From Candidatus Omnitrophota bacterium (lineage in GTDB: Bacteria > Omnitrophota > Gorgyraeia > Zapsychrales > Fredricksoniimonadaceae): a stretch of 64,000 bases of DNA. The notes beneath the pieces were generated by a model. The model did not search any database, was not told the DNA's origin, and saw only the letters and a program-made list of their open reading frames with translations. The position numbers and the translations under genes are program-made. Numbering within the stretch: position 1 is the first letter of the stretch; every line of letters begins with the position of its first letter. Positions 39,735 through 64,000 of this stretch are shown here, in pieces. The stretch spans positions 66,876 to 130,875 of the forward strand of contig CAIVRE010000018.1 in NCBI GenBank assembly GCA_903908245.1. Reading direction: 5' to 3'.

Positions 39735-39849
39735 TTCCGATAACATTACTGGAGAGGCAACACCCGTTCCCATTCCGAATACGGCAGTTAAGCTCTTCAA
39801 GGTCGATGGTACTGTACCCTTTGGGTGTGGGAGAGTAGATAGTTATCGG
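39735..39849 (+). rRNA. rrf: 5S ribosomal RNA
   Basis: ...CCCGTTCCCATTCCGAACACGG-like core (CCGTTCCCATTCCGAATACGGCAGTTAAG). Confidence 0.85.
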
Positions 39850-39857
39850 TTTATTTG

Positions 39858-40007: not shown

Positions 40008-40019
40008 TCATGGTGATGA

Positions 40020-40102
40020 AGAAAGGCAAACTACTTGAAAGAGTAGGGCGCAAAGCCGTGAGCCTGAATCCCGGGGGACCCGGGAAAGGCTGTCTGGTTG
40101 CC
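40020..40102 (+). ncRNA. probable c-di-GMP-I (GEMM) riboswitch aptamer
   Basis: AGGCAAACUACUUGAAAGAGUAGGGCGCAAAGCCGUGAGCCUGAAUCCCGGGGGACCCGGG...GGUUGCC is a near-exact match to the GEMM consensus (GGCAAACC, P1 hairpin with GAAA loop, GGACGCAAAGCC, CCUAAAC). A candidate attenuator lies at 40221-40250 before the ORF at 40360. Confidence 0.6.
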
Positions 40103-40220
40103 GTCGTGAGGACGTAAAGCTCGCTAAAAGAAAGTTTATAGCGAACGAGTACAGCCTTCGACCAAGCTTTGTAGCTTGGGCCGCACCTGTGAGTGTTGCC
40201 TTTGGCTACGATTACCAGAA

Positions 40221-44526: not shown

Positions 44527-44617
44527 CGGATACACGACAGAACGCTGTCGTATTCGTTTTGTATATTAATAATCCGCTGTTTCACCACTTCCTAAGTGGC
44601 AACAATGAACAGGGGGC

Positions 44618-44635: not shown

Positions 44636-44666
44636 GCGTAGATATTTGAGTATAATAAGGATCTAT

Positions 44667-46238
44667 ATGAGTGAATCGTTTGACCAGCAGCAGTCTCATC
44701 ATGATCTTATTTACGACATCCTCGTCGAGAAGAATGCCGTAAAATCTTCCGGGACTCTTACAAAATCAAAATTCTTGAACGGGCTTCAATGTCCAAAACT
44801 TTTGTGGACCTGTTGTAATTCTTCCGAAACAATACCATCTCCTTCTGTCAGGACTCAACAAGTGTTCGATGTCGGGCATCAGGTTGGCGCGCTTGCTGTT
44901 GAGAGATTTCCTGGTGGACGCCATGTTCAAGAGGATGACTTCCTAAAGAATATTGAAGAGACGCAACTGCTTTTGGCTTTGAAAGATCCGCAGCCGATCT
45001 ATGAAGCGGGGATCAAGGCGGGACGGTTGTATTCCCGCGCTGATATCCTGGTTCCGTCGAAGACAGTATCCGGGGCCTGGGACATTGTCGAGGTTAAGTG
45101 CGGGGCCGGTGTTAAAGAAATTTATCTTCAGGACATTGCCTTTCAGCGTTATTGCTACGAACAGGCCGGGGTGAAGATCGGGCGTTGTTTCCTGATGCAT
45201 ATTAATAATGAATATGTTCGATGCGGTTCTATTGATGTTGAAAAGTTTTTTCATCTTGTTGATGTTACCGGTGATATTGTTTCGTTATCCGCGGCTTTGC
45301 CGGAAATTATTGACGGCTTTCTAAAGATCATTGATTTGCCTAAATGTCCTGAAGTTTGTATTGGCCAGTTTTGTGATACGCCGTATTCTTGTCAGATGAA
45401 GTCTTTGTGCTGGGAATTTCTTAAGCCCGGGAATGTGATGGAACTTCGCGGGCGTAAGGAGACGGCATTTAAGTTTTTAGAGCAGGGGATTGAACAGATC
45501 AGGGATATAACAGATCCGGAAAAGTTATCTGACGGGCCCATGATCCAGTATCAGTGTGCTTTGAGTGGAAAGCCTTTTGTCGATCATGAGAAGATCGCGG
45601 GTTTTGTTTCGGGGTTAAAATATCCCTTATATTTTATGGATTTTGAGACATTATTTGAGGCGATCCCGCGTTTTGACGGGACACGGCCTTATCAGCAGGT
45701 GCCATTCCAGTTTTCGGTACATTTACTGACGGGTCCCGGCGTATTTGCCGAGCACTTTGAATTCTTGCATAAAGAGTCGACAGACCCCCGTCCGGCGCTC
45801 TTTAAGGCGTTGCGTGAATGTTTGGATTCTAAAGGTACCATTCTTGCGTATGTCATGAGTTTTGAAAAAGCCAGGATCAGAGAACTTGGGGAAGCTTTTC
45901 CGGAACATGCTGGATGGTGCGCCAATGTTAGTGCCCGGATCGATGACCTTATCATTCCTTTCCGCAGTTTCTTTTATTATCATCCTGCTCAGCAGGGCTC
46001 TTCCTCGTTAAAGAAAGTTTTGCCTGCTCTGGTAGGCAGGGGGTATGAAGGCATGATGATCGCTGATGGGGCTCAGGCAACATCCGAATATGCCCGGGTG
46101 ACCTATGGTAAGGGAGTTGACCCTGTTGATCACGCTAAGGTCTATGAAGACCTTGAGGCCTATTGCGGGCTGGATACCATGGCGATGGTGTACATTTTAG
46201 AGAAGTTGAAACTATTGCAGAAAGGATCATCATTATGA
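44667..46238 (+). CDS. Cas4/RecB-like PD-(D/E)xK nuclease (with Cys cluster) fused to a DEDDy-type 3'-5' exonuclease domain
   Basis: N-terminal half has D...DIVEVKCG (D/EVK), a QxxxY motif (QDIAFQRY) and a C-x3-C-x4-C-x5-C cluster. C-terminal half has FMDFET (exo I DxE), a central acidic motif and YCGLD (YxxxD exo III). ATG at 44667 lies inside track ORF 44559. Confidence 0.55.
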   Translation: MSESFDQQQSHHDLIYDILVEKNAVKSSGTLTKSKFLNGLQCPKLLWTCCNSSETIPSPSVRTQQVFDVGHQVGALAVERFPGGRHVQEDDFLKNIEETQLLLALKDPQPIYEAGIKAGRLYSRADILVPSKTVSGAWDIVEVKCGAGVKEIYLQDIAFQRYCYEQAGVKIGRCFLMHINNEYVRCGSIDVEKFFHLVDVTGDIVSLSAALPEIIDGFLKIIDLPKCPEVCIGQFCDTPYSCQMKSLCWEFLKPGNVMELRGRKETAFKFLEQGIEQIRDITDPEKLSDGPMIQYQCALSGKPFVDHEKIAGFVSGLKYPLYFMDFETLFEAIPRFDGTRPYQQVPFQFSVHLLTGPGVFAEHFEFLHKESTDPRPALFKALRECLDSKGTILAYVMSFEKARIRELGEAFPEHAGWCANVSARIDDLIIPFRSFFYYHPAQQGSSSLKKVLPALVGRGYEGMMIADGAQATSEYARVTYGKGVDPVDHAKVYEDLEAYCGLDTMAMVYILEKLKLLQKGSSL

Positions 46239-47254
46239 CGGCAAAAAAGAAGATCGTTAAGAGCGGGCGGACAGGTAACAAGAAGAAGCTCGTGACTTTT
46301 AAGAGGACGGGAAGGGGAAAGAAGGCTGAAGGTCAGAAAAAGGCTGTGGAGCGCCTTATAACGATGCTTTCGATCTTGGATAAGGGCCGCTCGATCTCAT
46401 CCAAAGAAGTTTCGGATACCCTTCATGTTACTCAACGCACAGTTCAGAGAGATCTTAAGATCCTTCATGATGCGGGTTATCCTATTCAGGATCTTGAGAA
46501 CGGACGATACCAGTTCATGGAAGGCTTTTCCTTGCGCAAGGTTTCTTTGACAGAGGAGCAGGCGTCGCTCTTGTCGTTCATGTTCGATGTTGCATCCGGG
46601 TTAGGGGAGACTTTTGAAGCATCGTTCCGTGATCTTTTTAAACGCTTACTGGCCAAAGACCTTTATACGCCTTTCTATGCAAAGGTTCCGGTTAAACAGG
46701 CTCCGTTACCGGCGACGACACAGGTTAAGTTTCTTGAGGCGTCAATTCTTGAAAGCAACCGCATTAAGATCAAATATGTTTCAGCAACTCAAATTGAGAA
46801 AGAGTATTGTCTTGAGCCGCTGAAGATCGCATTCTTTGATGGGTTCTGGTATCTGATCGCGATCAAGAAAGGTGACAAGCAGATTCAAAAATACAGGGTG
46901 GACAGGGTGCTGGATGTAGAGATCCTGGAGGAGTCGTTTGCGCCTTCTGTAAATATTGACAAGATCCTCGGTGACAGCGTTAATATCTGGTTTGACGAGG
47001 TGCGAGGTGAGCGGGTTCTGATCAGGGTGGCGCCGGATGCGGTTCAGTATTTTAAGGAGCAAAAATATCTTCCGCTTCAAAAGACGGTTGAGGAGCGTAA
47101 GGATGGATCAATTGTGATCGAGACCTTTCCGGCTAACCTGGATGAGATCAAGCACATTGTCATGCATTGGGTGCCTTGTTTAACTGTGCTTGAGCCGGCG
47201 GGTTTCAAGGCCGAGATCAAGGCGATGGTGGAGGGGTATTTGAAGGATTGTTAA
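46235..47254 (+). CDS. HTH-WYL domain transcriptional regulator (BrxR/CapW-like) with Lys-rich N-terminal extension
   Basis: wHTH (ITMLSILDKGRSISSKEVSDTLHVTQRTVQRDLKIL) followed by a WYL domain (FFDGFWYLIAIKKGD...YRVDRV); the start overlaps the nuclease stop (ATGA). Confidence 0.65.
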   Translation: MTAKKKIVKSGRTGNKKKLVTFKRTGRGKKAEGQKKAVERLITMLSILDKGRSISSKEVSDTLHVTQRTVQRDLKILHDAGYPIQDLENGRYQFMEGFSLRKVSLTEEQASLLSFMFDVASGLGETFEASFRDLFKRLLAKDLYTPFYAKVPVKQAPLPATTQVKFLEASILESNRIKIKYVSATQIEKEYCLEPLKIAFFDGFWYLIAIKKGDKQIQKYRVDRVLDVEILEESFAPSVNIDKILGDSVNIWFDEVRGERVLIRVAPDAVQYFKEQKYLPLQKTVEERKDGSIVIETFPANLDEIKHIVMHWVPCLTVLEPAGFKAEIKAMVEGYLKDC

Positions 47255-49062: not shown

Positions 49063-49080
49063 CGACAGGATGCTGTCGCC
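49063..49080 (+). promoter_or_regulatory. palindromic operator copy 2 (GCGACA-GGATGC-TGTCGC), 10 nt upstream of TATAAT
   Basis: Read directly; precedes phosphatase A. Confidence 0.5.
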
Positions 49081-49120: not shown

Positions 49121-50092
49121 ATGGCAGTAAGAAAAGATGATTCGGATGAGGGACGCATGTTTGAGGTTGCTGATTATGGGCGTGAACTTCCAAGGGAGAT
49201 TGATCCCGGCAAGCCGTATTGGGTGTTAGGTGGTAAGGCGGCGTTGTTTGGCATGCCGCATCCGAATCGACTCGCCAGGGATGGTCAGAAGGATCTGTTC
49301 AAAAGACTTCAGAATGCCAAAGTGCAGGTAATTATCAATCTGTCTGGGAGAAGGTATGCGAATCCTGATCCGAATTGGTTTGATTACCAAGAGTTTTTTA
49401 TCACTGACGGTGGTCCGATGGATGGAGAACAGAATATTCTTTGGGCGGCCGTTGCGTATGTTGTGAAGTCATTAAAAGCCGGGAAAAGTGTTGTGATCCA
49501 TTGTGAAGGCGGAACAGGACGCACGGGTGTGACAATAGGGTGCGTGTTGTGCAAGCTTGGAAAAGGAACCGGTCAGGACATCGCGATTTGGTTAAGTGAG
49601 CTTAATAATAGACGCCCCGGGAAACGCTGGCCTGAGGCCTCTATTCAAGGGAAGATCGTTCGGGAATGCTGTCCGGATAAGAAAGGCAATGATCGTCAGG
49701 TGATTGATCCGGCAACGCGCAATATTAAGGAAGTGTCGCTTTTTTCTGATGAAGAAAGAAGCTTTATGTGTACGGTTGTAGCCGTCAATGGAGATCGGAT
49801 TACAGTGCGCCGGCATGATACGGGAGAGGTTATTGAGGTTTCCAGCAGGTTCCTGCAGAAGCAGGAGCGGCCTCGGGAAGAACAAAGGAATGTGCAGGAT
49901 ATATTTGCATCGGCCACTCCGGAAGATCTTCAGGAAAGAGCTCGTCAGTATCCCTATATCCTTTTGGATGAGGTTCAACGGACGCTGGCGCTTTTTGCTA
50001 AGAAGTTGTCTTCAGCGAAGGCTGAGAAACTAAAGAATGATCTTTTAGATATTAATGCACGGATAGAGGTCCTTAAGAAAAAGATCAATTAA
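49121..50092 (+). CDS. Cys-based protein phosphatase-fold protein A (CX5R P-loop HCEGGTGRTG) with ~150 aa C-terminal extension
   Basis: VVIHCEGGTGRTGVTIGC is the PTP/DUSP-type active site. Paralog of 51664-52248 over the N-terminal ~190 aa. ATG inside track ORF 49046; coordinate ±1. Confidence 0.55.
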   Translation: MAVRKDDSDEGRMFEVADYGRELPREIDPGKPYWVLGGKAALFGMPHPNRLARDGQKDLFKRLQNAKVQVIINLSGRRYANPDPNWFDYQEFFITDGGPMDGEQNILWAAVAYVVKSLKAGKSVVIHCEGGTGRTGVTIGCVLCKLGKGTGQDIAIWLSELNNRRPGKRWPEASIQGKIVRECCPDKKGNDRQVIDPATRNIKEVSLFSDEERSFMCTVVAVNGDRITVRRHDTGEVIEVSSRFLQKQERPREEQRNVQDIFASATPEDLQERARQYPYILLDEVQRTLALFAKKLSSAKAEKLKNDLLDINARIEVLKKKIN

Positions 50093-50160: not shown

Positions 50161-50178
50161 GCGACACGATGTTGTCGC
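50161..50178 (+). promoter_or_regulatory. palindromic operator copy 3 (GCGACA-CGATGT-TGTCGC), followed by TGT-TATTAT extended -10
   Basis: Read directly. Confidence 0.5.
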
Positions 50179-51084: not shown

Positions 51085-51639
51085 GTGCCTATGAAGTGGA
51101 GTGAGTTTGTTCAACGAAAAGAAGCGTATAAAAAGACCTGGGCGTTGCTTAAGGCTGAATATGCGCCCGAGAATCCGGTAAGAAAGTTCCTGGATAAGGC
51201 TTACATGAACATCTTCTTCAATGGAAAGCAAATTGATTTTAATTTAGATCCGTACACTATTGCACGTGACACTCCGGATTTCTTCGTTAAGAATAAATAT
51301 TTTAATGAATATCTTGAGTTGATTAAGACATGTAAGGCATTGGAAGATTTGTCTTATAAAGAGAAAAAGACGAAGGTTACTAACGAATTCGATCACAATG
51401 GAACTATAAGGAAGAAAGTCAGTCGATTAGATATGAAAAAGAAAGAACTTCAGCAGTTTGATGTCAATCAACTTGAAGTGGTGCCTAATCGCGCGGAAAT
51501 GATCGTCTCGACGATAGATATGGATATTATTCAGAATATCAAGGGGTCAAAGTTCTGCGATCAAGAGGCAACCTTAATGAGTCGTGCCTCAATACGGGTG
51601 ATCCTTGTTGGCGGTGATAAATTGGGATATCCATGGTAA
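51085..51639 (+). CDS. hypothetical protein X1 (paralog of 52414-52905)
   Basis: MKWSEF... and the C-terminal IDMDIIQNIKGSKFCDQEATLMSRASIRVIL align with the paralog's MTWDEF... and VDMDLIQQIKNSPYCDQEKTMMRPASINVVL. Confidence 0.4.
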   Translation: MPMKWSEFVQRKEAYKKTWALLKAEYAPENPVRKFLDKAYMNIFFNGKQIDFNLDPYTIARDTPDFFVKNKYFNEYLELIKTCKALEDLSYKEKKTKVTNEFDHNGTIRKKVSRLDMKKKELQQFDVNQLEVVPNRAEMIVSTIDMDIIQNIKGSKFCDQEATLMSRASIRVILVGGDKLGYPW

Positions 51640-51663: not shown

Positions 51664-52248
51664 ATGCCTGTTATGACTGAAGAACTGGATGAGCCGCGCA
51701 TCTATGAGATCGCTGATTATGGAAAACCTCTGCCGCGGGTTATGAATCCTTTGAGGGCGTATCGTGTCCTTGACGGCAACGCGTCGTTATTCGGGATGCC
51801 GCATCCGTCCATTCTTAAGGAAATAGACCGCAAGCAGTTGTTTGCTCAATTGTATGAGGACGGAGTTCGTTATCTTATTAATCTGACTAAAGAAAATTCA
51901 GGTGCTTCATATTCCGACAGGATTTTATTATCATCGTTTTGTCCTGTTACGGATCAGGGACCAAAAGGGGCTATTGAAAAGACTATGCTTTTATCGGGCG
52001 TAGATAGCGCGGTAGCGGCTTTAAAGAATGGCGAGGGGGTTGTGATCCATTGTTGGGGAGGAACCGGGCGTACGGGGACGGCCATCGGGTGTATTTTACG
52101 CAAGCTGGGTAAAGGCTCCGGTGTAGAGATTGTGAATTGGCTTGGTGAGTTGAATCAAAGGCGTGAAAGGCATTGGCCGGAGTCACCGGTACAGGCTGAA
52201 GTGGTTAGGGAGTGTCAGCCGGGGGAAGATTTCTTTGATAGGCTGTAA
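51664..52248 (+). CDS. Cys-based protein phosphatase-fold protein B (HCWGGTGRTG)
   Basis: VVIHCWGGTGRTGTAIGC; the N-terminus IADYGKPLPRVMNP...LFGMPHPS is paralogous to protein A. Confidence 0.55.
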   Translation: MPVMTEELDEPRIYEIADYGKPLPRVMNPLRAYRVLDGNASLFGMPHPSILKEIDRKQLFAQLYEDGVRYLINLTKENSGASYSDRILLSSFCPVTDQGPKGAIEKTMLLSGVDSAVAALKNGEGVVIHCWGGTGRTGTAIGCILRKLGKGSGVEIVNWLGELNQRRERHWPESPVQAEVVRECQPGEDFFDRL

Positions 52249-52330
52249 TCTTTAAGGCAGAGAATTTTGAACGCTGTTGTTATTAAGGCCGGGCGACATG
52301 AAAGTGTTATCCGGTTTTTCTTTTTACTAA

Positions 52331-52348
52331 ACGACAGGATGCTGTCGC
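52331..52348 (+). promoter_or_regulatory. palindromic operator copy 4 (ACGACA-GGATGC-TGTCGC)
   Basis: Read directly; preceded by a hairpin resembling the 50117 terminator. Confidence 0.45.
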
Positions 52349-52413
52349 GTGAGTGTTTTAAGGTTATGTACGGTGTTGATCCGGGCAGGCAGGTGAATCG
52401 GGCGGGGGGTGTT

Positions 52414-52905
52414 ATGACATGGGATGAGTTTCTGGCAGAAAAGAAGTTGTATGTTCAATCCTGGAAGAAAATGAAAGAGGGCGCTACAGAAGATATGCAG
52501 AAGTTTCTGAGCAAGTCCTGGATCGTGGTGTATTGCAAACAGCAGTTTGATATTGATGCGGATTTTATGACTGTTTTTAATGAATGTCCTTCATTCTTTC
52601 AAAATGTGCCAAGGTTCACCAGGATCAAAGCGCTCTGTGAAGAGATGAAGACGCTTGAGAAACGCATTAAGCGGGAGAAAGAAAACCATAGTGACCTGCT
52701 GGAAGATAAGAAAGATCTTCAAGAAGAAATAGCGGAGTTGTGTCCGGGGGAGCTTCCAGTTGATGATTCCTGGAGGATTGAGGTCAGGTTTCCTACTGTA
52801 GATATGGATCTGATCCAACAGATCAAGAATTCTCCGTATTGTGATCAGGAAAAGACAATGATGCGCCCTGCCTCTATTAATGTGGTGTTGAAGAACGTAC
52901 TGTAA
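52414..52905 (+). CDS. hypothetical protein X2 (paralog of 51085-51639)
   Basis: See X1. The start was chosen by paralog alignment; alternatives are ATG 52366 and the track start 52267. Confidence 0.4.
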   Translation: MTWDEFLAEKKLYVQSWKKMKEGATEDMQKFLSKSWIVVYCKQQFDIDADFMTVFNECPSFFQNVPRFTRIKALCEEMKTLEKRIKREKENHSDLLEDKKDLQEEIAELCPGELPVDDSWRIEVRFPTVDMDLIQQIKNSPYCDQEKTMMRPASINVVLKNVL

Positions 52906-53319: not shown

Positions 53320-53337
53320 GCGACAGGATGTTGTCGC
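53320..53337 (+). promoter_or_regulatory. palindromic operator copy 5 (GCGACA-GGATGT-TGTCGC), followed by TGT-TATACT extended -10
   Basis: Read directly. Confidence 0.5.
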
Positions 53338-54841: not shown

Positions 54842-55157
54842 TGCCCGTATAGCGCATATTAACCGTTATTTTGCTGTCTATTTAACTGTTATTTCGGTGG
54901 TCCTTGTTTTGGTCATTTCCGGATCTCCCGTTGCTATTTCATTGTCACATTTCGATAGAGATATGCCTGTTGGTTTCGGCAAGGGGATGGCGCACGGGTT
55001 TTTGCTGTCTGTGAACCTTATCCGTTCGATCTTTGATGTTCGGACAGGTATTTACCAGATACCCAACACTGGAATGGGATACAACGCAGGGTTCTTTCTG
55101 GGCATTATTTTATGGTTCGCTATCGGGCGTATGGGGGAAGAAACGAAGGCGACATGA
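54828..55157 (+). CDS. small hypothetical membrane protein (109 aa)
   Basis: ATG 54828 inside track ORF 54792; two predicted TM helices; overlaps the J-protein 3' end. Confidence 0.35.
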   Translation: MSLFDARIAHINRYFAVYLTVISVVLVLVISGSPVAISLSHFDRDMPVGFGKGMAHGFLLSVNLIRSIFDVRTGIYQIPNTGMGYNAGFFLGIILWFAIGRMGEETKAT

Positions 55158-55166
55158 GGCTGTCGC
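55149..55166 (+). promoter_or_regulatory. palindromic operator copy 6 (GCGACA-TGAGGC-TGTCGC)
   Basis: Read directly; precedes the long downstream operon. Confidence 0.5.
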
Positions 55167-55212
55167 TGGTTAATGCTAAGCTCTTATACATAATTAATAC
55201 TCAGGTGATTGC

Positions 55213-55617
55213 ATGCAAGAGAGAATCTTGAAGAAGCGAAAAACGTATAAGCCTATCGACGCGGAAACGCTGGGGCGTAGCCTTTTTAAGATCCACACGT
55301 GTAAGAAACGAGGAAAGTATTCGCCGGCCGTTAAAGTCATTGCCGGTGATATATGGGAGATGCTTGGTGGGATGCGGGCAATGGCGCAGGAGTTTGTTAA
55401 GAATCCGACGCTTGAGGTAATGGAAGAACTCAGATTTTGGTTATTGGATAGTGATCATCATTGGAATTCATTAAAGAATATTTGCAGCAGGAGCAGAGGG
55501 CGGCGGAGTTTGGATCGCTTGGCTAAAGAATATCCGCAGTGGTTGTTGCTGCTACCTTTGGAAGATGTAGCAGAACGGTTATGGTGGCTTGAAGAAGAAG
55601 GAGATGAGGGAATATGA
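55213..55617 (+). CDS. hypothetical protein (134 aa), translationally coupled to the AAA+ ATPase
   Basis: Stop/start overlap (ATGA) with the next gene. Confidence 0.35.
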   Translation: MQERILKKRKTYKPIDAETLGRSLFKIHTCKKRGKYSPAVKVIAGDIWEMLGGMRAMAQEFVKNPTLEVMEELRFWLLDSDHHWNSLKNICSRSRGRRSLDRLAKEYPQWLLLLPLEDVAERLWWLEEEGDEGI

Positions 55618-56984
55618 AAAATGATCAGGAATACTTCGATAACTACTTTTGCATCAGTGAACTGCTGATCGAGAAAGATCTGCTTGTCGATAAGTTGTGG
55701 GAGGGCAAAAACGATACCGGATATTTGGCCAGCGCACACTATCAGGCAAGGAAGGCCATTAACACGCTTAATTCTTTGATACGCGATGAAGAAAAGCGCT
55801 TGAGTCATATTATTCGTAAGGCTGAGTCGCAAGGAACGATTTTTTCTTTTGAATCGTTCACAAGAAAGATGGAGTTGAGTGATTTTGAGAAACGACTGAT
55901 GCTTTTCTTTCTGCATCTTGATCTGTTTTGCAGTGGCAGCGTCGGTTTTCCAAGAAGAAAGCTGGCGTTGATCCTTGATTGCGAAGAAACAGCGGTATCC
56001 CGTGCGAGAACGTTGCTGGATCTGTTTCCAGGTAGTGCTTTATACAAGAAGAATATTCTGTCTGCGATCGACATCGGCGGAAGTGAGGTTCGTTTGGCTG
56101 AGAGCATGCGGGATGCTTTGAGAAAACTTGTGTCAGGTCAGGAGGCGGATCTTGTTATGACTGAGACTACCCGGGAGGAGATTGAGGCTGCCGGGGTTGT
56201 TTATGAGCCCGAATACAGCATGGAAGACGTGTCGCTTCCCGGGCAGATCAAAGAACAGGTTTTAATGCATTTGAACACGCATGGACGGCTGGCATCGTTA
56301 GGAGTCATGGATAAAGTGCGGCGCGGTCGTGGGCTTTGCATGTTGTTTTATGGTCCTCCAGGGACAGGGAAAAGCATGCTTTCTCATGCCATAGCACGTC
56401 ATTTAGGAAAAAAGGTTCTTCAGGCATCTCCGGCGCAGATCAAAGACCGCTGGGTAGGCCAGACAGACAAGAATATTGCCGCTTTATTCAAGGTGGCTAA
56501 AGAAAAGAATTATGTCTTGTGTCTGGATGAGGTCGATACGCTTTTATTTGAACGAAGCGAGGCGTCACGTTCATGGGAGATCTCGCAGACGAATACGTTT
56601 CTTGAAGAAGTAGAAAGATTTGACGGGATTTTAGTAATGACAACAAATCTGGAAGGGCGGCTTGATCCAGCGATTGAGCGCCGGGTGGCGTTGCGTGTCC
56701 GTTTTGATGCGCCTGACCATTGCGTACGGGAGACTATCTGGCAGAAACAGATCCCGTCGACTGTTAAGTGTGGGGAAGATATTAATTGGGCTCGTCTGGG
56801 AATGCAGTATTCATTTACCGGCGGTTATATCAAGAATGCCGTCATGTCCGCGTTGCGTCATATGCTTTCACGGGAAAGTCAGGTGCTTGAGATGGAGGAT
56901 CTTGTTTATGGAGCCGAGAGTGAAATGAAGGGGCTTTTACGAAGTTCCGCTAAAGCTCCAATGGGTTTTGCAACTAGAGGATAA
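55614..56984 (+). CDS. classic-clade AAA+ ATPase with ~230 aa N-terminal domain of unknown function
   Basis: Walker A LFYGPPGTGKSM, Walker B VLCLDEVD and second region of homology/Arg finger (TTNLEGRLDPAIERRV). Confidence 0.75.
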   Translation: MKNDQEYFDNYFCISELLIEKDLLVDKLWEGKNDTGYLASAHYQARKAINTLNSLIRDEEKRLSHIIRKAESQGTIFSFESFTRKMELSDFEKRLMLFFLHLDLFCSGSVGFPRRKLALILDCEETAVSRARTLLDLFPGSALYKKNILSAIDIGGSEVRLAESMRDALRKLVSGQEADLVMTETTREEIEAAGVVYEPEYSMEDVSLPGQIKEQVLMHLNTHGRLASLGVMDKVRRGRGLCMLFYGPPGTGKSMLSHAIARHLGKKVLQASPAQIKDRWVGQTDKNIAALFKVAKEKNYVLCLDEVDTLLFERSEASRSWEISQTNTFLEEVERFDGILVMTTNLEGRLDPAIERRVALRVRFDAPDHCVRETIWQKQIPSTVKCGEDINWARLGMQYSFTGGYIKNAVMSALRHMLSRESQVLEMEDLVYGAESEMKGLLRSSAKAPMGFATRG

Positions 56985-56990
56985 AAATCT

Positions 56991-57179
56991 ATGAATCTTA
57001 AGGAATGGCAGAAGATGCTTGGCAAGAAGAAGTTCCCGAGTTTGCACGGTGTTTATGATGCCATTGATATGGATGGGCGGATTGTGGGGCGGACGGTCTA
57101 CATCAAGGGCAGGAAGGTCATGACGATTGCACCAATATGGCCGGAAGAAGAAATTACGATAGACGACGAAAAGAAATAA
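56991..57179 (+). CDS. small hypothetical protein (62 aa)
   Basis: ORF between the AAA gene and murA2 in a tight operon. Confidence 0.3.
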   Translation: MNLKEWQKMLGKKKFPSLHGVYDAIDMDGRIVGRTVYIKGRKVMTIAPIWPEEEITIDDEKK

Positions 57180-57192
57180 TAGACAGGAACTT

Positions 57193-58482
57193 ATGGAAAA
57201 ACTTGTGATCAATGGCGGAGTGCCGCTTAAAGGTGAAGTATTCATTTCTGGATCGAAGAACGCTTCTTTGCCGGCCATGGCCGCGACATTGTTAACGGAT
57301 GAGCCTTGTGTTCTTAAGAATGTGCCAGTGGTTTCGGATATTAACACAATGAGTAATCTTTTAATGACTCTGGGTAAGGATGTTAAACGGGATAAGGATG
57401 CTTTGATCATCACATCAAAAGGCCGGTTGAAGCCATTGGCTGATTATCGCCTTGTATCAACGATGCGCGGGTCAGTGTGCGTGCTCGGCCCCCTTCTGGC
57501 TCGACTTGGAGAAGCGCGGGTGGCTTTGCCTGGCGGATGTGTTATTGGTGTCAGGCCGGTCGACTTGCATCTTAAAGGCTTTGAAAGTCTTGGGGCCAGG
57601 ATCGATATTGAGGGTGGATATATTATCGCCAAGTCTTCAAGGCTTAAAGGGGCACGCATGTATCTTGCAGGGGCCATGGGGCCTTCTGTTCTTGGCACAG
57701 CAAATGTGATGATGGCCGCAACCCTGGCCACAGGCGAGACAACCATTGAGGGGGCGGCCTGTGAGCCGGAGATCAAGGACCTCGCCGATCTTTTGAACCT
57801 TATGGGGGCGAAAATAAGCGGCCACGGCAGCCCTACGGTGGTCATTGAAGGTGTTAAACGACTGCACGGGGTTGAGTACAAGGTTTCAGCTGATCGCATT
57901 GAGGCCGGAACATTCATTCTATTGTCAGCCATGACACGGGGAAATGTGATCGTTCGCGGCGTTGAACATCATCGTCTTTTGTCTGTGGTGGATGCGTTGA
58001 ATGAAGCTGGTGTTGCATGTGAATGCCGCGGAGCTTCAGTGCGCGTAAAGTCACCAGCAAGATTTAAGCCAGTGAATGTAACAACCCATCCTTATCCGGG
58101 GTTTCCGACAGATCTTCAGGCTCAGTACATGGCCATGATGACGCTGGCAGATGGGGTGAGTTCTGTTAGGGATACAGTTTTTCCGGACAGATTCATGCAT
58201 CTTGCTGAACTAGCGCGCATGGGGGCCAAGGTTCGTCGTGAAGGGGGCGTGGCGGTCATTGAAGGGGTTAAGGAGCTCAAGGGTGCCCCTGTGATGGCGT
58301 CGGATTTAAGGGCGTCTGTGGCGCTGGTTATGGCCGGTGTTGTGGCTAAAGGGCAGACAGAGGTCCGCCGTATATACCATCTCGACCGTGGATATGAGGG
58401 CATTGACCGGAAATTGATCGATTTAGGGGCTAAAGTAAGACGGGAACAGGATAAAGTTGTGCCTAATGAGGAGATCGGATAA
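57193..58482 (+). CDS. murA: UDP-N-acetylglucosamine 1-carboxyvinyltransferase paralog (MurA2)
   Basis: About two-thirds identical by eye to the MurA at 2017-3279 across the full length. Retains [13 protein letters not shown] with the Cys and carries a ~10 aa C-terminal extension. Confidence 0.9.
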   Translation: MEKLVINGGVPLKGEVFISGSKNASLPAMAATLLTDEPCVLKNVPVVSDINTMSNLLMTLGKDVKRDKDALIITSKGRLKPLADYRLVSTMRGSVCVLGPLLARLGEARVALPGGCVIGVRPVDLHLKGFESLGARIDIEGGYIIAKSSRLKGARMYLAGAMGPSVLGTANVMMAATLATGETTIEGAACEPEIKDLADLLNLMGAKISGHGSPTVVIEGVKRLHGVEYKVSADRIEAGTFILLSAMTRGNVIVRGVEHHRLLSVVDALNEAGVACECRGASVRVKSPARFKPVNVTTHPYPGFPTDLQAQYMAMMTLADGVSSVRDTVFPDRFMHLAELARMGAKVRREGGVAVIEGVKELKGAPVMASDLRASVALVMAGVVAKGQTEVRRIYHLDRGYEGIDRKLIDLGAKVRREQDKVVPNEEIG

Positions 58483-59321
58483 TGGACGAACAATTCTTTA
58501 CAAAATATTCTCCGTCTGAACTGTATTCATCTGTTGGGTGCGGTGGTGAGTACATAAGCTATGAAGATCAGAATTTGGCTCACTTGGATGTCCCTTTTCT
58601 TTTTCCGTCTGAAGCGCTATTTAAACTTAAATCGTTCATCGAGATATGTCAGCGGCATCATATGGATGATAGTGCTGTAACACGGGATTATGAAGAAGTC
58701 TGGGTTGCCGGATCTTTGAAAGCGCGTGGAGGGTTCTATTCCGGTCGTCCGTGCGGTTGCTGGCGCTTCTTTAATGAGAACGGGCAATGCGCGGAAGTGG
58801 TGCATTTGGATGTCGAGGGGAATATTTACAGTGAACACGTATTGTTTTATTCAAATGGACAGAGAATGTTTTCGTTTTGTCACCAAGGGGACGTTTTGTC
58901 TGGCCCTTTGATGGAGTGGTTTTCAAACGGGCAGATTAAACGGGAAGAACGGTTTCGTGAGGGTAAGCACAATGGCATGTCTCGCAGTTGGCATGAAAAT
59001 GGCCGTCTTGAAATGGAGCGGGAGTTTGAAAATGACACGCCGGTCGGAGGGTATACACTTTGGGATCAGGATGGCCTTGTGATCATGGAAAGGATCCCGG
59101 TAGAGTACACGAAAGTCTTTCAGGAAAAAGAATACACCAGAAAAGGTCAGCTTAAACGGATACGGTCATATCTGGCGGATTATCAGATGCACGGCGAAGA
59201 AACTTCATATTATGACTACGAGCGTCAAGTTATGCGGGAGCAGCCGGAAGTGAAATATTACTTAAATAATAAGGAAGTAAACAAGGTCGAATATTTTGCG
59301 CGGACAGGGGGCGTTTTGTAA
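58482..59321 (+). CDS. MORN-repeat protein (YwqK-like)
   Basis: Repeated WFSNGQIKREERFREGKHNGMSRSWHENGRLEMEREFEND-type units; the start overlaps the murA2 stop. Confidence 0.5.
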   Translation: MDEQFFTKYSPSELYSSVGCGGEYISYEDQNLAHLDVPFLFPSEALFKLKSFIEICQRHHMDDSAVTRDYEEVWVAGSLKARGGFYSGRPCGCWRFFNENGQCAEVVHLDVEGNIYSEHVLFYSNGQRMFSFCHQGDVLSGPLMEWFSNGQIKREERFREGKHNGMSRSWHENGRLEMEREFENDTPVGGYTLWDQDGLVIMERIPVEYTKVFQEKEYTRKGQLKRIRSYLADYQMHGEETSYYDYERQVMREQPEVKYYLNNKEVNKVEYFARTGGVL

Positions 59322-60037
59322 TGGAAAATTCATCTTTCGATATGCACGAAGAAATGTTTATCCCGATGCTTTCTCAAAAGGAATTTATTCCTCTTGATCA
59401 GGAGAAGGTTGCCCATGAACGCCGGTGTTATGTCATGACACCAGCACTGTCGAGCAAGTGGTCAGCTCTTTGGGATCTTATGAAGCTATATTCTGATGCC
59501 GGGCTTTATGATGATGCTATTGCCGTCGGTCGTGAAGTGCTGTCAGATCATGTTCTTGAAGAATATCACGCGAATGCTTTGTTCAGGATGGGGCAGTTGA
59601 GTGAGCACAAGAATGATTTTGATATGGCGTTAAAGTTCTATTTAGAAAGCATTGATAAAGAAGCTGCAAATCCTGAACTTGGGTACTGGCAGCATAATAA
59701 CGCAGGATTCTGTTATTTAATGAAGCAGGAATTTGAGCGTGCAGAACACCATTGCCGCATAGCACTGGAGTTTGATGAACAGAATTGGAAGGGTTGGAAG
59801 CAGCGTTGGGGTGATCCGCATCAGTGGAATGCCTGGAAGAACATGGGTGCTGCGATGGAATATACCGGTCGTTATAGGGAGGCCGCATCTTTTTATACAG
59901 CTGCAATCAAATTCAGCCGCGGCACTGAACGGGCTGTTTTGCATCTTAGGCGTCTATTGAAACGTCATTCCGATGTGGCGGTTTACTGGAAAGAGCCGGT
60001 TCAAGATCTTTTGACATATTACAATGTAACTGTTTGA
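59321..60037 (+). CDS. hypothetical TPR-like helical repeat protein
   Basis: Composition (A/L/Y/W-rich helical repeats); overlapping start. Confidence 0.35.
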   Translation: MENSSFDMHEEMFIPMLSQKEFIPLDQEKVAHERRCYVMTPALSSKWSALWDLMKLYSDAGLYDDAIAVGREVLSDHVLEEYHANALFRMGQLSEHKNDFDMALKFYLESIDKEAANPELGYWQHNNAGFCYLMKQEFERAEHHCRIALEFDEQNWKGWKQRWGDPHQWNAWKNMGAAMEYTGRYREAASFYTAAIKFSRGTERAVLHLRRLLKRHSDVAVYWKEPVQDLLTYYNVTV

Positions 60038-60046
60038 CGGAAAGAG

Positions 60047-60895
60047 GTGTTTGTGGGTAAGAAGTCGGTATATTTTTCATCGCTATTGCCAGTGAGATTT
60101 CCTGAATTCTTCAAGAACTTGTCCGGTATTTTGGATTCCACGAAGGTCAAGTGGGGACTATTGCCTCATACCAATGATATCTGGTGCCGGGATTACATGC
60201 CCGTTCGCGTATCTCCGCGCAAGTTTGTTCAGTTTAAGTATGCGCCGTCATATTTAATGACGAAGAAATGGCGGTCAACGATCACTGATCCCGTCAAAGT
60301 GTGTGAGGCTGTCGGCATCAAGGCTGATCCCTGGGATTTTGTGATAGATGGCGGGAATGTTGTCCGGTTCGGATCTAAAGCGATCATGACCGAGCGGATT
60401 TATAGCGAGAATCCGGAGTATTACCCGGAGATATTCTCGGATGTTCTTAAGGATTTTCTGAAGGTTGATGAGCTTATTATGATTCCCGAGGAGCCGTGGG
60501 ATCCTTACGGGCATGCAGACGGATGTGTGAGGTTTCTTAATGAGAACACGGTCATCATCCATGAGCTGCATAAAAGTCATCCGGGATTTGATCGCGCTCT
60601 AAGAAACGTTTTAAAGGAGCATCGTCTGGAGTATGTTGAAATGCCGTATTTTATTGATAATGATCCAAAGCATAAGGATTCGGCAGTAGGGAACTATGTG
60701 AATTATCTTGAAGCGGGGAAAGTAATTGTAGTGCCTGCTTATATGGGTTATTCTAAACAAAATGAGCGCGCGTTGTCAGTGTTGAAGAGCGTATTCAAAG
60801 GGAAGAAGATTGTTCAGATTGAGTCAACGCCTATTGCCAAACTCGGCGGGGTGTTGAATTGTGTGAGTTGGGATCTTGGAAAGAAGGAGTGGTAA
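60047..60895 (+). CDS. agmatine deiminase / PAD_porph-family guanidino-modifying enzyme-like protein
   Basis: WCRDYMP, IDGGNVV, GHADGCVRF and C-terminal GGVLNCVSWD match the family motifs WxRDxGP, DGGN, GHxDxxxxF and GGxxHCxTQ (His to Asn before the catalytic Cys). Confidence 0.5.
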   Translation: MFVGKKSVYFSSLLPVRFPEFFKNLSGILDSTKVKWGLLPHTNDIWCRDYMPVRVSPRKFVQFKYAPSYLMTKKWRSTITDPVKVCEAVGIKADPWDFVIDGGNVVRFGSKAIMTERIYSENPEYYPEIFSDVLKDFLKVDELIMIPEEPWDPYGHADGCVRFLNENTVIIHELHKSHPGFDRALRNVLKEHRLEYVEMPYFIDNDPKHKDSAVGNYVNYLEAGKVIVVPAYMGYSKQNERALSVLKSVFKGKKIVQIESTPIAKLGGVLNCVSWDLGKKEW

Positions 60896-60898
60896 GGA

Positions 60899-61411
60899 AT
60901 GAATGTTGAAGATGCCGTATTTAATGACTTGTTCCTATATGATTCTCCTCAGAAGAAACAGGCTCAAATAGCCAAAGATCATAATGTTACTGAGGATGAC
61001 GTTAGAAGCATTCGTGAAAAATACCATTTAACTGAAGCGGTAAAAGAGATTAAGAGAATTCGGGCTTTGTGGTCCAATAAGAAGGATTTTGGATTATTTA
61101 CGAAGTTTTATAAATGGTACAGTCGGGGTATTTGTGATTATTGTGGGATATCTCAGGATGTGGTTAAGAAAATTGTCGAGAGTGGGAAGTTGACATCAAA
61201 ACGATTTCCAGCTGTTGATAAGAAATGTCAAAGAGGGCGAAGCAGGGGAATTTCATTAGAGGTTGATAAAAGGAAGCCAGGTGAGGGATATCTTCAAAAA
61301 AACTGTGCTCTGGTATGTTACTTTTGTAATAATGATAAAAGTGATGTGTTTAATGATGAGCAATATATGCTTTTTCTTGTTAATAGAAGAAAGTTTTTAG
61401 AAAATCTATGA
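60899..61411 (+). CDS. Cys-cluster protein with degenerate HNH-like core
   Basis: CDYCG ... LEVDKRKPGEG ... NCALVCYFCNNDKS follows HNH topology (CxxC ... DHxxP ... GG ... NLxxLCxxCNxxK) but has Lys in place of the catalytic His. Confidence 0.3.
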   Translation: MNVEDAVFNDLFLYDSPQKKQAQIAKDHNVTEDDVRSIREKYHLTEAVKEIKRIRALWSNKKDFGLFTKFYKWYSRGICDYCGISQDVVKKIVESGKLTSKRFPAVDKKCQRGRSRGISLEVDKRKPGEGYLQKNCALVCYFCNNDKSDVFNDEQYMLFLVNRRKFLENL

Positions 61412-62271
61412 AAAATACAATCGCTTTAGTCTACGACTTCGACGGAACACTGTCCTCTAAATCCATGCAGGAGTATACGGTTCTGCCGAATTTGGGTGTT
61501 GAAGATATGGACCGGTTTTGGGAGTCCATCAATGAGGAGGGCAAGAAGCACAACGCTGAGATGAGTCTTGTCTGGATGCGAAGGATCATCGAGCTTGCCA
61601 GGCAGGGTGAGAAGAGGATCACACGGGAATATTTTAAAAAATGCGGCCGGGATATCGAGTATTTTCCGGGTGTCGTGCAATTCTTTAAAGCTATTAACCG
61701 GCATGTGAGCAAGGCGTCCCGGGGAAGAATGAAGGTGCGGCATTATATCGTGTCCGCGGGGCTCAAGGAGATCCTTGACGGGATAAGCATTCGCAAAGAA
61801 TTTCATAACATTTTCGGATCTGAATATTTCTATGATGAGAACGGCCGGCCTCATTTCCCCAAGGTGGTCATTACGGACACGATCAAGACGCAATATCTTT
61901 TCCGCATCAACAAGGGCAAAGAGCTTTTGAGCGACAGTATCAATGAACACATGGATGAAGAAGACCGTCCGATCCCGTTCGAGAATATCATTTATGTGGG
62001 TGATGGGCTGACCGATGTTCCGGCCATGACGTTGACCCGCAAGTCAGGCGGCCATTCGATCGCGGTATATCGTCCCGGTTATAAACGGGGCTTGCAGACG
62101 TGTAAGCGTTTGCTGGCGGCCCCCAGGGTGGACTTTGCGGCGCCAGCTGATTATCGCAAGAACAGCGAACTCTTTCAGTATGTCACGAGCGTTCTGGATT
62201 TGATCGTAAAGAAATACGATTTCGGGTGTAAGAGTGAACAGAATCGTAAGAGTTTAAGAATGGGGCAGTAA
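61408..62271 (+). CDS. HAD-superfamily hydrolase
   Basis: Motif I VYDFDGTLS and motif IV YVGDGLTDVPAM. Confidence 0.65.
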   Translation: MKNTIALVYDFDGTLSSKSMQEYTVLPNLGVEDMDRFWESINEEGKKHNAEMSLVWMRRIIELARQGEKRITREYFKKCGRDIEYFPGVVQFFKAINRHVSKASRGRMKVRHYIVSAGLKEILDGISIRKEFHNIFGSEYFYDENGRPHFPKVVITDTIKTQYLFRINKGKELLSDSINEHMDEEDRPIPFENIIYVGDGLTDVPAMTLTRKSGGHSIAVYRPGYKRGLQTCKRLLAAPRVDFAAPADYRKNSELFQYVTSVLDLIVKKYDFGCKSEQNRKSLRMGQ

Positions 62272-62275
62272 TAGC

Positions 62276-62899
62276 ATGTTAAAGATAGATAAAGTATTTG
62301 GGTATGGTGAGGACGGGTTAACCTTGCGCTTCTTTACGACGCAACTGGAAGACTTCTTGAAAATTGTTGAGGATTCTTCTGCCCCGGATGATTGCAAGTT
62401 CTTTTACAGGCCTTCTTTTGGGAGAGGCGGAAGGAATTCAAAATCAACCTTTGGTGAGTTTGACGGGATTTTGTCGACTCCCCGGAAGATTTATCTTATT
62501 GAAAGTAAGTGCTGGGCGAATTCCAGAAAACCGTTCTTATTAGATAAAGCTCAGATGTTAAGGCACGAGATATTTAAGAAATACTATGAAGTGTGGGAAA
62601 AGGGTACGAAGTGGGAGGAAATTAAGCTTGAGTTCCTTGGCAAGCTTCTTCCTTCCGGGGATAGCCTGTTGGCAAAGAATTTATCGAGGATCCTGGATCA
62701 GTTGATGTCGGATACGGGAGCCAGAAAAGAGATCATGAATGTTTTGATCTTTTTTGTTCCTGAAGGGGTAACCCGCAAAGCTTCTTTTTCCGTAGCTCCG
62801 CAAGTTAAAGAAAAGTTCACAGTGCTTTTTTGTCGTGGCGCTAGTGCATCTTTTGAGCTTTTCGAGAAGCCGGATCCCTGCGACATAACGCTGTCGTAG
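62276..62899 (+). CDS. hypothetical protein with possible PD-(D/E)xK-like core
   Basis: GEFDGIL...IYLIESKCW fits a D...(D/E)xK pattern; weak. Confidence 0.3.
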   Translation: MLKIDKVFGYGEDGLTLRFFTTQLEDFLKIVEDSSAPDDCKFFYRPSFGRGGRNSKSTFGEFDGILSTPRKIYLIESKCWANSRKPFLLDKAQMLRHEIFKKYYEVWEKGTKWEEIKLEFLGKLLPSGDSLLAKNLSRILDQLMSDTGARKEIMNVLIFFVPEGVTRKASFSVAPQVKEKFTVLFCRGASASFELFEKPDPCDITLS

Positions 62900-62943
62900 C
62901 TGAATGTTATTCTTTGAATGATGAGAAAAGGCGCTAATTTAAT

Positions 62944-64000
62944 ATGAAGATCATCATTCATCGCGGTACAAAAGAGATCGGCGGGAACTGTGTAGAGATT
63001 TGCACAGAACAGACGCGCCTTATCCTCGATCTTGGCATGCCATTGGTTGATCCCCGGGACAAAACAAAAAAGTTTGAGAGTTTCTCTGTAAGCCGCATGA
63101 CACTGCTCCAAATGCTCGATGCGGGCATCCTTCCAGCAGTTAAAGGCCTTTATGAGGGCCTTGACGACGTTAAGCCGGTCGATGCGCTCCTCTTGTCTCA
63201 TCCCCATCAGGATCATTACGGCTTTTGCAAGTATATCCGTAAAGACATCCCTGTTTATCTAAGCCAGGATGCAAATTTGATGCTGGGTGCTTCTGATGTG
63301 TTTCTACCCACACGGTTTGGCATACATGACCAGCGGAGGTTCTTTCAAGATCGCACACCGGTGCAGATCGGCGATTTCAAGGTAACGCCCTATTTAATGG
63401 ACCACTCCGGCTACGGGGCGATGGCGTTTCTGGTAGAGGCGGATGGGAAAAAGATCTTTTACAGCGGTGACTTTCGCGGGCATGGGCGCAAGAGTGCGCT
63501 TTTTGATAAATTACTAAGATTGCCTCCTTCTGGTATTGATGTTCTACTCATGGAAGGCACGATGGTCGATCGCACAGGGGAAGGTGTTGATACGGAACAA
63601 CAGCTTGAGAATCGGATCGTTAAGGAAACGCGGCAATATCCGGGCATGAAGTTGATCCAGTGTTCCGCGCAGAACATCGACAGGGTTGTAACTTTCTACA
63701 GGGCGGCGAAACGGTCCGGCGCTATATTTGTGATGGATCTGTATGTGGCGAATGTTATTCATGCGCTTGAGCGCAAAAGCCTGCCAGATCCATTTAATGG
63801 GTTTAAGGATGTGCAGGTGCTTTTTACGAAGCATTTTATGAAAAGACTGGAACAGAAGAAGATCCCGGACTGGTACAAGAGGTGGCGGCCTTATGAGGTC
63901 AGATCATCGGAATTGAAGCGGGCGGGCGGCAATGTTTTTGCATTTTATCGGGAGAATTCTGAACCTGAACTTGAGCCGGCAGGCATTCCTTCGGGGTCAG
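62944..64000 (+). CDS. metallo-beta-lactamase-fold hydrolase, 3' partial (runs off the window end)
   Basis: LLSHPHQDHYG (HxHxDH) and later D/H motifs. ATG 62944 preceded by AGGCG. No stop before 64000, so it is absent from the track. Confidence 0.6.
   Translation, partial: MKIIIHRGTKEIGGNCVEICTEQTRLILDLGMPLVDPRDKTKKFESFSVSRMTLLQMLDAGILPAVKGLYEGLDDVKPVDALLLSHPHQDHYGFCKYIRKDIPVYLSQDANLMLGASDVFLPTRFGIHDQRRFFQDRTPVQIGDFKVTPYLMDHSGYGAMAFLVEADGKKIFYSGDFRGHGRKSALFDKLLRLPPSGIDVLLMEGTMVDRTGEGVDTEQQLENRIVKETRQYPGMKLIQCSAQNIDRVVTFYRAAKRSGAIFVMDLYVANVIHALERKSLPDPFNGFKDVQVLFTKHFMKRLEQKKIPDWYKRWRPYEVRSSELKRAGGNVFAFYRENSEPELEPAGIPSGS

Follow-up and report, generated by a model that had tools for sequence, protein, structure and literature searches.

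Does a tightly packed run of eleven genes in an Omnitrophota genome encode the parts of one machine, or independently shuffled modules that sit behind a repeated operator? The question arises from positions 55213 to 64000 of a 64,000-nucleotide (nt) stretch of Candidatus Omnitrophota contig CAIVRE010000018.1 (this whole stretch is referred to here as the window), in which eleven co-directional, + strand open reading frames (ORFs) follow one copy of a palindromic operator. The original prediction, made from the letters alone, read this array as a possible multicomponent system for defense or for modification of nucleic acids or the cell envelope. We favor, with somewhat better than even confidence, the reading that the array is an inducible, mosaic cargo operon of a mobile island regulated by a WYL-domain protein and not one integrated system.

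The gene array and its conservation

In order, the array encodes a 134-amino-acid (aa) protein, an AAA+ ATPase, a 62-aa protein, a second MurA (MurA2), a MORN-repeat protein, a TPR-repeat protein, a PAD-like guanidino-modifying enzyme, a 170-aa HNH-like protein, a HAD phosphatase, a 207-aa PD-(D/E)xK protein, and a metallo-beta-lactamase (MBL). The eleven ORFs fill the segment, and the description of a tightly coupled array behind a repeated operator proved correct. The intergenic gaps are, in order, -4, 6, 13, -1, -1, 9, 3, -4, 4, and 44 nt; most junctions agree with the gaps of 0 to 10 nt or overlapping codons originally given, the exceptions being the 13-nt gap and the 44-nt gap that precedes the MBL gene. 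All nine gaps among the first ten genes are thus ≤13 nt. Tight co-directional packing is partly a genome-wide trait, because nearly all real genes of the window lie on the + strand (GC skew is positive throughout) and 20 of 33 gaps in its housekeeping part are ≤15 nt. At that housekeeping rate, the chance of nine tight gaps in succession would nevertheless be ~0.61^9 = 0.01, and the run is therefore tighter than background.

To read past the window, we used a public contig sequence identical to it (L001). The MBL gene extends ~260 nt beyond the window, and a hairpin with a T-tract, typical of a terminator, lies 29 nt past its stop codon (L001:12014-12031); the operon therefore ends ~300 nt after the window does. 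It had been expected to continue beyond the window, which is correct, but it does not continue far. Scans for sigma-70 promoters and terminators within the operon gave matches at chance level only.

Conservation was assessed by running tblastn with all island proteins against two sets of sequences: 80 genome loci anchored on the HAD phosphatase and 85 loci of which 84 carry a homologue of the WYL regulator. Of the second set, 80 loci come from a scan of metagenomes, for which five regulator homologues (that of the window and four others) were aligned, and five are earlier loci. A conserved block of eleven genes was rejected, as no locus of either set holds the full complement; across the ~170 related loci, the gene set is found together in none. 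The closest relative, L006, has the order DUF2779, WYL, HNH-like, IS30-like, TPR, PAD, 189-aa, HAD, 309-aa, and MBL. Its PAD (93% identical), MBL (90%), HAD (88%), and TPR (61%) genes are retained, and other genes stand in place of the AAA+, MurA2, MORN, and 207-aa genes, none of which is present.

Full-length homologues of the AAA+ protein are almost confined to Omnitrophota. In L086, L088, and L090, they are found near WYL, DUF2779, PAD, MORN, TPR, and DnaJ genes, in an order and with partners that vary from locus to locus, and the triad of 134-aa, AAA+, and 62-aa genes is restricted to the nearest relatives. Within the 85 loci, homologues of window proteins were counted for DUF2779 (30 loci), MBL (23), AAA+ (14), MORN (~6), PAD (5), HNH-like (4), TPR (2), HAD (2), and MurA (1), with none for the 207-aa protein. 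The AAA+, PAD, TPR, MORN, HNH-like, and HAD genes therefore recur in shifting combinations, which does not hold for MurA2 or the PD-(D/E)xK gene. The original prediction had named scattered, non-co-localized homologues as a result that would speak against it, and the picture obtained is in part of this kind: subcombinations recur, while the full set occurs nowhere. One multicomponent system is not what the neighborhood comparison reveals.

What does recur is a frame around the cargo. The WYL and MBL genes share a strand in 23 loci, where the distance between them is ~20 nt (8 loci), ~0.9 kb (8 loci), or as much as 5.1 kb (L111) and 7.3 kb (L006); in the window, it is 15.7 kb. The conserved parts are the regulator (WYL and DUF2779), its DNA box, and the beta-CASP MBL, and everything else is variable cargo. 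Because the WYL-MBL gap varies, the operon can be described as cargo embedded between two conserved genes. The MBL gene, preceded by a box of its own, is more than the eleventh member of the array: it belongs to the core of a DUF2779-WYL-MBL module. In this respect the locus resembles the guilt-by-embedding arrangement from which the PADLOC PDC candidates derive, with variable cargo in the same orientation between conserved genes (here WYL and MBL); it differs in that the host module is DUF2779-WYL-MBL and not BREX, DISARM, restriction-modification, or Hma.

WYL boxes and their presumed regulator

The palindrome CGACA-N6-TGTCG is present in seven exact copies in the window, compared to 0.04 expected, all of them between 44535 and 62896; L001 has an eighth copy, past the MBL terminator. 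Each box occupies the -35 position and is followed, after 11 nt, by a TAnnnT hexamer as the -10 element, and five boxes lie 45 to 47 nt ahead of a start codon. A scan with the sigma-70 consensus called no promoter at the box sites. All seven boxes are given here on the + strand. Box 1 (CGACAGAACGCTGTCG; 44535-44550) is followed by 11 nt and TATATT and lies 5' of the DUF2779-WYL pair. Box 2 (49063-49078) precedes a DSP-type phosphatase gene, box 3 (50162-50177) a 70-aa ORF and a metallophosphatase gene, box 4 (52332-52347) a gene of a 170/212-aa paralog family, and box 5 (53321-53336) the gene for a membrane DnaJ-domain protein. Box 6 (55150-55165), the operator copy predicted ahead of the operon, is indeed present; it contains the stop codon of the gene upstream and, together with an 11-nt spacer that includes TG and the -10 hexamer TAAGCT (55177-55182), makes up promoter P6 (55150-55182). 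Box 7 (62881-62896), overlapping the 3' end of the 207-aa gene, forms with an 11-nt spacer and TATTCT the internal promoter P7 (62881-62913) of the MBL gene.

The same geometry is found elsewhere. A survey of 86 sequences (the 85 loci and the window) yielded 109 distinct exact boxes. TAnnnT follows 97 of the 109, at offset 11 (72 boxes) or offset 10 (25 boxes). Offsets 8 to 9 after the box are enriched in T and G, as is characteristic of an extended -10 element. Divergent promoters use the palindrome as well, as indicated by 25 reverse-strand matches at offset 11; in one case, a DUF2779 promoter on the opposite strand shares it. The most frequent first gene behind a box is that of the WYL protein (48 cases). 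The other genes in this place are DUF2779 in other loci (10), members of the AAA+ family (10, of which one has no direct BLAST match), the paralog family of the island (8), a family of secreted 681-aa proteins (8), and DnaB-like helicases (4). In many WYL loci (L092-L162, e.g., L106:1793 and L109:3805), the WYL start codon lies 23 to 24 nt past the box, which is the predicted transcription start; this spacing suggests that the WYL mRNAs of these loci are leaderless and autoregulated.

The presumed binder of the boxes is a wHTH-WYL-WCX protein (wHTH, winged helix-turn-helix) encoded at 46235-47254 (+ strand; alternative start, 46163), with matches to HTH_11 (7.8e-9), WYL (1.6e-13), and WCX (2e-9). 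Its gene follows that of its conserved partner, the DUF2779 protein (44646-46238, + strand; PF11074, 6.9e-39). The best solved relatives of the regulator are PafBC (6sj9, 2.5e-5) and DriD.

Comparison with these and other WYL-domain proteins places the boxes closest to promoters activated upon DNA damage. The promoters of DriD of Caulobacter crescentus lack a -35 element; the protein occupies that position by binding ATACGAC-N7-GTCGTAT, with a constant spacing to the -10 element (PMC13004042). DdaA of Acinetobacter binds CGAC-N7-GTCG (PMC13010146). The window regulator shares with both the wHTH-WYL-WCX architecture, a CGAC/GTCG palindrome, the control of several promoters by one regulator, and a site that overlaps the missing -35 element at a fixed distance from the -10 element. 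It differs in the spacer between CGAC and GTCG (8 nt here versus 7 nt), in the extended -10 TG of its promoters, and, for DriD, in the weak protein similarity (~24 bits). The regulons also differ: those of DriD and DdaA are dispersed and hold repair and division genes, whereas here the targets are clustered in an island and are mostly uncharacterized cargo. In the 64 kb of genome searched and in L001, no core repair genes of the type found in those regulons (recA, ssb, uvrA, and similar) follow the boxes. PafBC, known from the RecA-NDp promoters of mycobacteria, is likewise a WYL-domain activator that replaces -35 recognition and is the best PDB match; it acts as a heterodimer or fusion on a nonpalindromic motif (PMC6789036), unlike the single regulator gene and palindromic box described here.

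BrxR and CapW resemble the window regulator in lying beside variable, defense-type genes and in being autoregulated (PMC9122601, PMC11662680), much as the box precedes the WYL gene in 48 loci. They are, however, repressors of one adjacent operon, whereas here at least eight promoters lack a -35 element and carry the box 11 nt from the -10 hexamer. Their islands differ as well, in that PADLOC returns here only the PDC-S34 candidate and a partial IetA-like match. The lack of a -35 element, the fixed 11-nt distance, and the presence of at least eight promoters lead us to favor activation over repression.

Operon proteins and island setting

The domain assignments of the original prediction (AAA, MurA, MORN, TPR, PAD-like, HAD, MBL, PD-(D/E)xK, and HNH-like) were largely right, as judged by Pfam, NCBIfam, PADLOC, PHROGs, and fold comparison; the three nuclease-type folds, the HAD protein, and the guanidino-modifying enzyme are all present. 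All operon genes are on the + strand. The first, at 55213-55617, encodes the 134-aa protein, to which no function is assigned; its stop codon overlaps the AAA+ start (ATGA), and a 41% identical homologue lies directly 5' of the AAA+ gene in L088. The AAA+ ATPase (55614-56984) belongs to the classical clade, with the Walker A motif GPPGTGKS, the pore loop WVG, and a helical or winged-helix N-domain. Its structure model (predicted local distance difference test score, 87) matches proteasomal Rpt, p97, Vps4, and FtsH modules. A classical AAA+ protein with a novel N-terminal domain had been predicted; the first part stands, but the N-domain is not wholly novel, as its homologues match Pfam PF22977, a winged-helix domain variant. 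The 62-aa protein (56991-57179) is a conserved partner, with ORFs 54 to 55% identical directly after the AAA+ gene in L088 and L090.

The AAA domain (residues 196 to 434) is IetA-like (PADLOC, 4.5e-31), which recalls Ietas, a pairing of the AAA+ protein IetA with the protease IetS. Here, in contrast, the N-domain is a PF22977-type winged helix and the partners are the 134-aa and 62-aa proteins. Membership in Ietas was rejected, as the NF042959 score is 101 bits against a cutoff of 510 and an IetS partner is lacking; Pfam, PADLOC, and NCBIfam found no protease domain in the operon proteins.

MurA2 (57193-58482), a UDP-GlcNAc enolpyruvyl transferase, scores 523.6 bits against TIGR01072 (cutoff, 392.7). 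It can be aligned over its whole length with solved MurA structures, contains GSKNA, PGGCVIG, FPTDLQ, and LDRGYE, and has the catalytic Lys22, Cys115, Asp305, and Arg397 motifs. That this enzyme is a cell wall paralog, as predicted, is confirmed by a second murA gene in the window (2017-3279, + strand; 420 aa), from which it differs at about one-third of positions (68% identity). The latter is the housekeeping gene, located in a prfA-prmC-murA-trpG-trpD arrangement (90-4859) that recurs in another contig; it is 100% identical to the L171 genes. Paralog pairs such as MurA1/MurA2 or MurAA/MurAB occur in Gram-positive bacteria. As in those pairs, one genome here has two full-length murA genes whose catalytic Cys, Lys, and Asp residues appear intact; in contrast to them, the second copy resides on a mobile island, inside a WYL-box operon, in a very narrow clade. 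Close relatives exist only at 97% and 88% identity, beyond which identity drops to 70%, and the 88% relative lies right behind a large serine recombinase and a helix-turn-helix (HTH) gene at a different chromosomal site. The GC content of the MurA2 gene (0.516) is core-like, compared to 0.45 for the remaining operon. As to whether MurA is a recurrent member of the regulon, one other locus, L134, has a MurA gene 1.8 kb 5' of a WYL gene; it is located at the end of the contig, and chance alone would give ~0.3 cases of this kind. Between them in L134, and adjoining the WYL homologue, is the gene for a 560-aa DUF262/GmrSD-like protein (L134:1385-3067; DGQQR and C-terminal DHIFP); the L134 WYL homologue also has a box and a TPR gene. 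L088, for its part, carries a GIY-YIG gene.

The MORN-repeat protein (58482-59321; MORN_2, 4.1e-8) is followed by the TPR-repeat protein (59321-60037), which has homologues in L006 (61%) and L088 (55%). The next gene, at 60047-60895, encodes a short PAD- or agmatine-deiminase-like enzyme (PF04371, 8.7e-27; 94.6 bits against a cutoff of 25). The WxRD, GHxD, and C-terminal Cys motifs are retained, and GHADG and GGVLNCVS align with catalytic motifs. It is not AguA at the equivalog level (TIGR03380, 40.9 against a cutoff of 381.8) and is without ~70 N-terminal residues of that profile. The 170-aa protein (60899-61411) is an HNH- or endonuclease VII-like zinc finger protein (endonuclease VII PHROG, 4.9e-7). 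It retains CxxC...CxxCNN and the Asn residue, but the His residue of the "DH" motif is replaced by K or R, as it also is in its two homologues, so that the catalytic His of HNH nucleases is absent from all three aligned proteins. With a GC content of 0.35, this gene is the minimum of the operon (neighbors, 0.43 to 0.52), which hints at a separate, more recent acquisition.

The HAD-IB-type phosphatase (61408-62271) has an intact DxD motif and is the PADLOC candidate PDC-S34 (PDLC05002; 6e-95, full length). Outside Omnitrophota, its homologues (51 to 56% identical) adjoin a type III pantothenate kinase gene in ~58 of 80 genomes; these are the loci of Burkholderiales, Usitatibacter, and relatives (L010-L085), where the PDC-S34-type HAD gene sits beside coaX and a SPOR-like gene. 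With such housekeeping neighbors, the HAD protein was rejected as a defense marker and is not diagnostic. Sequence searches found no solved structural relatives of the HAD or DUF2779 proteins. The 207-aa protein (62276-62899) has a restriction endonuclease-like fold with a conserved D...(D/E)xK motif (invariant D63, E76, and K78). The genes 5' of the MBL gene in L006 (309 aa) and L118 (261 aa) have D...ExK-like motifs by eye; a conserved PD-(D/E)xK gene ahead of the MBL gene was rejected, as hhalign gave a probability of <1% against the 207-aa family. The last protein, a beta-CASP MBL nuclease (62944-64000; 438 aa in full), has an HPHQDH sequence that fits HxHxDH and matches the RNase J family (8e-12) and EF2904 (3.6e-19).

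The operon is the largest cargo block of a low-GC island that extends from ~42 kb to past the window end at 64 kb, with GC content falling from ~0.51 ahead of it to ~0.45 within it. The window as a whole is a segment of bacterial chromosome, with a complete rRNA operon (34640-39851) and three tRNAs, and its proteins have their closest relatives in metagenome-assembled genomes of Candidatus Omnitrophota. A large serine recombinase (42078-43970, - strand; Resolvase, 6.8e-29; Recombinase, 5.5e-23; Zn_ribbon_recom) is encoded at a tRNA-Ser gene (42211-42299, + strand), which the 3' end of the recombinase ORF overlaps on the opposite strand, reading through it. This recombinase probably marks the left border of a mobile island, and the tRNA-Ser gene may be its integration site.

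Other island genes encode two DSP-type phosphatases, a metallophosphatase, a MORN protein, and a membrane DnaJ protein. The phosphatases match Pfam families (Tc-R-P/PTP-SAK) named for polymorphic toxin and "Swiss Army Knife" proteins. They are paralogous (49121-50092 and 51664-52248), with 70% DNA identity over a 125-nt stretch (49490-49614 versus 52039-52163). Another paralog family, without an assigned function, occurs three times in the island (51085-51639, 52267-52905, and L001:12160-12570); two of these copies are directly behind WYL boxes, and the same family is found behind boxes in 8 other loci (including L088, L092, L093, L095, and L103). Past box 8 (L001:12614-16277 and a 34.6-kb contig) are genes for a DUF3142 protein, 769-aa and 267-aa proteins, and a UvrD helicase paired with a PD-(D/E)xK protein (PDDEXK_1). 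On the island proteins outside the operon, PADLOC gave only the WYL match and two marginal matches. Away from the island, the window has two cyclic di-GMP-I riboswitch aptamers, at 6411-6578 and 40015-40105 (62.6 and 63.2 bits); the second lies between the 5S rRNA gene, which it closely follows, and a 556-aa ORF (40360-42030) downstream.

Competing explanations and what the locus may mean

Under the cargo operon reading, P6 would drive the first ten genes and P7 the MBL gene, with transcription ending ~30 nt past the latter. Single-stranded DNA (ssDNA) arising from DNA damage or from the replication of a phage or mobile element would bind the WYL domain, as for DriD, DdaA, and PafBC, and thereby free the wHTH domain to bind the box. 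RNA polymerase would then be recruited, and all units, with at least eight promoters including P6 and P7, would be switched on together. The products would act as independently shuffled modules between WYL and the beta-CASP MBL and not as subunits of one machine: the AAA+ unfoldase with its 134-aa and 62-aa partners; the second MurA; the MORN and TPR proteins as adaptors alongside the PAD-like enzyme; the catalytically degenerate HNH-like protein; the PDC-S34 HAD protein; and the PD-(D/E)xK nuclease. The nucleases and the protein remodeler might act on invading or damaged nucleic acid, and MurA2 might sustain or protect the synthesis of cell wall precursors. The most likely output is an inducible conflict or stress response. 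We favor a conflict or defense role because the embedded cargo is hypervariable, the context is mobile, nucleases are present, PDC-S34 and IetA-like matches were obtained, and defense genes lie beside WYL homologues, in keeping with the known co-localization of WYL regulators with defense islands (PMC9122601).

Several points weigh against the cargo operon reading. The sensing of ssDNA, activation as opposed to repression, and co-transcription are argued from analogy, and DriD and PafBC are only remote relatives of the regulator (24 to 27 bits), while BrxR and CapW, which are related WYL proteins, act as repressors. The right end of the island lies beyond the stretch seen, and PADLOC found no complete known defense system in the island. 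PDC-S34 is so far only a candidate defense family (bioRxiv 10.1101/2024.01.29.577857), and the neighbors of its Betaproteobacterial members suggest a housekeeping role there. The metagenome loci were picked by WYL homology and are phylogenetically related. Finally, the box search covered 64 kb of genome, and boxes before core repair genes elsewhere are possible.

The last point bears on the main rival to a conflict or defense role, namely, a role in DNA damage tolerance. In this explanation, the boxes would define a LexA-independent DNA damage response, a regulon of the DriD/DdaA/PafBC type devoted to repair, damage tolerance, and cell cycle or envelope adjustment and not to defense. The box half-sites and promoter geometry match those of DriD and DdaA (PMC13004042, PMC13010146), nucleases are abundant, DnaB-like helicases belong to the regulon of other loci, and the UvrD and PD-(D/E)xK pair lies downstream of the operon. 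The DriD and DdaA regulons include division inhibitors, a precedent for envelope genes such as those of MurA2 and the membrane DnaJ protein. Nevertheless, the boxes seen are confined to one recombinase-bordered, low-GC island and are absent from the 44 kb of core genes; the genes behind boxes in the window and L001 include none of the recA, uvrA, ssb, or lexA type; and close relatives differ sharply in gene content, a pattern typical of conflict or accessory loci rather than core repair. We regard this explanation as unlikely overall, if deserving of serious consideration.

More doubtful still is the integrated anti-phage defense or modification system in which eleven parts would act together. 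The tight, translational coupling of the genes, one predicted inducible promoter shared by them, three nuclease folds, and the IetA-like and PDC-S34 matches are what such a system might present. Set against these, the gene set is never found together in the related loci, L006 keeps only TPR-PAD-HAD-MBL (61 to 93%) and swaps or omits the others, and the neighbors of AAA+ homologues change between loci. Individual members also point away from it, in that the HAD gene has a housekeeping context in most of its genomes, the MBL gene has a promoter of its own and lies directly beside WYL in 8 loci, and the AAA+ protein falls well below the IetA cutoff without an IetS protease.

An equally improbable account is that the island is an integrative mobile element whose WYL protein serves as a damage-sensing induction switch, like a prophage repressor, with the operon devoted to replication, excision, or host takeover. 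The serine recombinase at tRNA-Ser, the MurA2 relative beside a recombinase at another chromosomal site, the resolvase and excisionase-like HTH gene of L086, the DnaB-like genes behind boxes in some loci, and one DUF2779-WYL-MBL locus classed as viral in IMG/VR are consistent with it; yet capsid, terminase, conjugation, and replication initiator genes were not found, and the PHROG matches are all to generic families of ATPases, endonucleases, and hydrolases. A phage or prophage origin was rejected on the same generic PHROG matches and on the IMG/VR search, in which 2.9 million viral contigs contained one WYL homologue and no full-length AAA+ homologue. That homologue, L172 (IMGVR_UViG_3300008625_001644), carries the DUF2779-box-WYL-MBL core; the contig may be an island wrongly classed as viral or a copy carried by a prophage.

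A broader form of the cargo operon reading can be offered only tentatively. DUF2779, WYL, and the beta-CASP protein could constitute an undescribed module, widely conserved in Omnitrophota and related uncultured lineages, in which an ssDNA-sensing activator recognizes an N8-spaced CGAC box with an extended -10 element. Such a module might serve as a mobile landing pad for immune or damage effectors, with cargo that includes an uncharacterized AAA+/small-protein module and an inducible MurA2 that could replace or shield the housekeeping enzyme if phage lysis proteins or toxins target the synthesis of cell wall precursors.

For those planning to express the operon as one system, the correction of the idea of a single eleven-part machine matters directly. 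If the cargo operon reading is true, the 16-bp box, with its fixed spacing to an extended -10 element, would provide a testable code for the targets of one WYL regulator, in a candidate phylum with almost no experimentally characterized gene regulation. The stretch between WYL and MBL could then be mined through guilt-by-embedding for stress or immune effectors, among which the module of the AAA+, 134-aa, and 62-aa proteins, the short PAD-like enzyme, and the PDC-S34 phosphatase would be candidates. A MurA under a damage-type promoter would, in addition, tie mobile islands to the synthesis of cell wall precursors.

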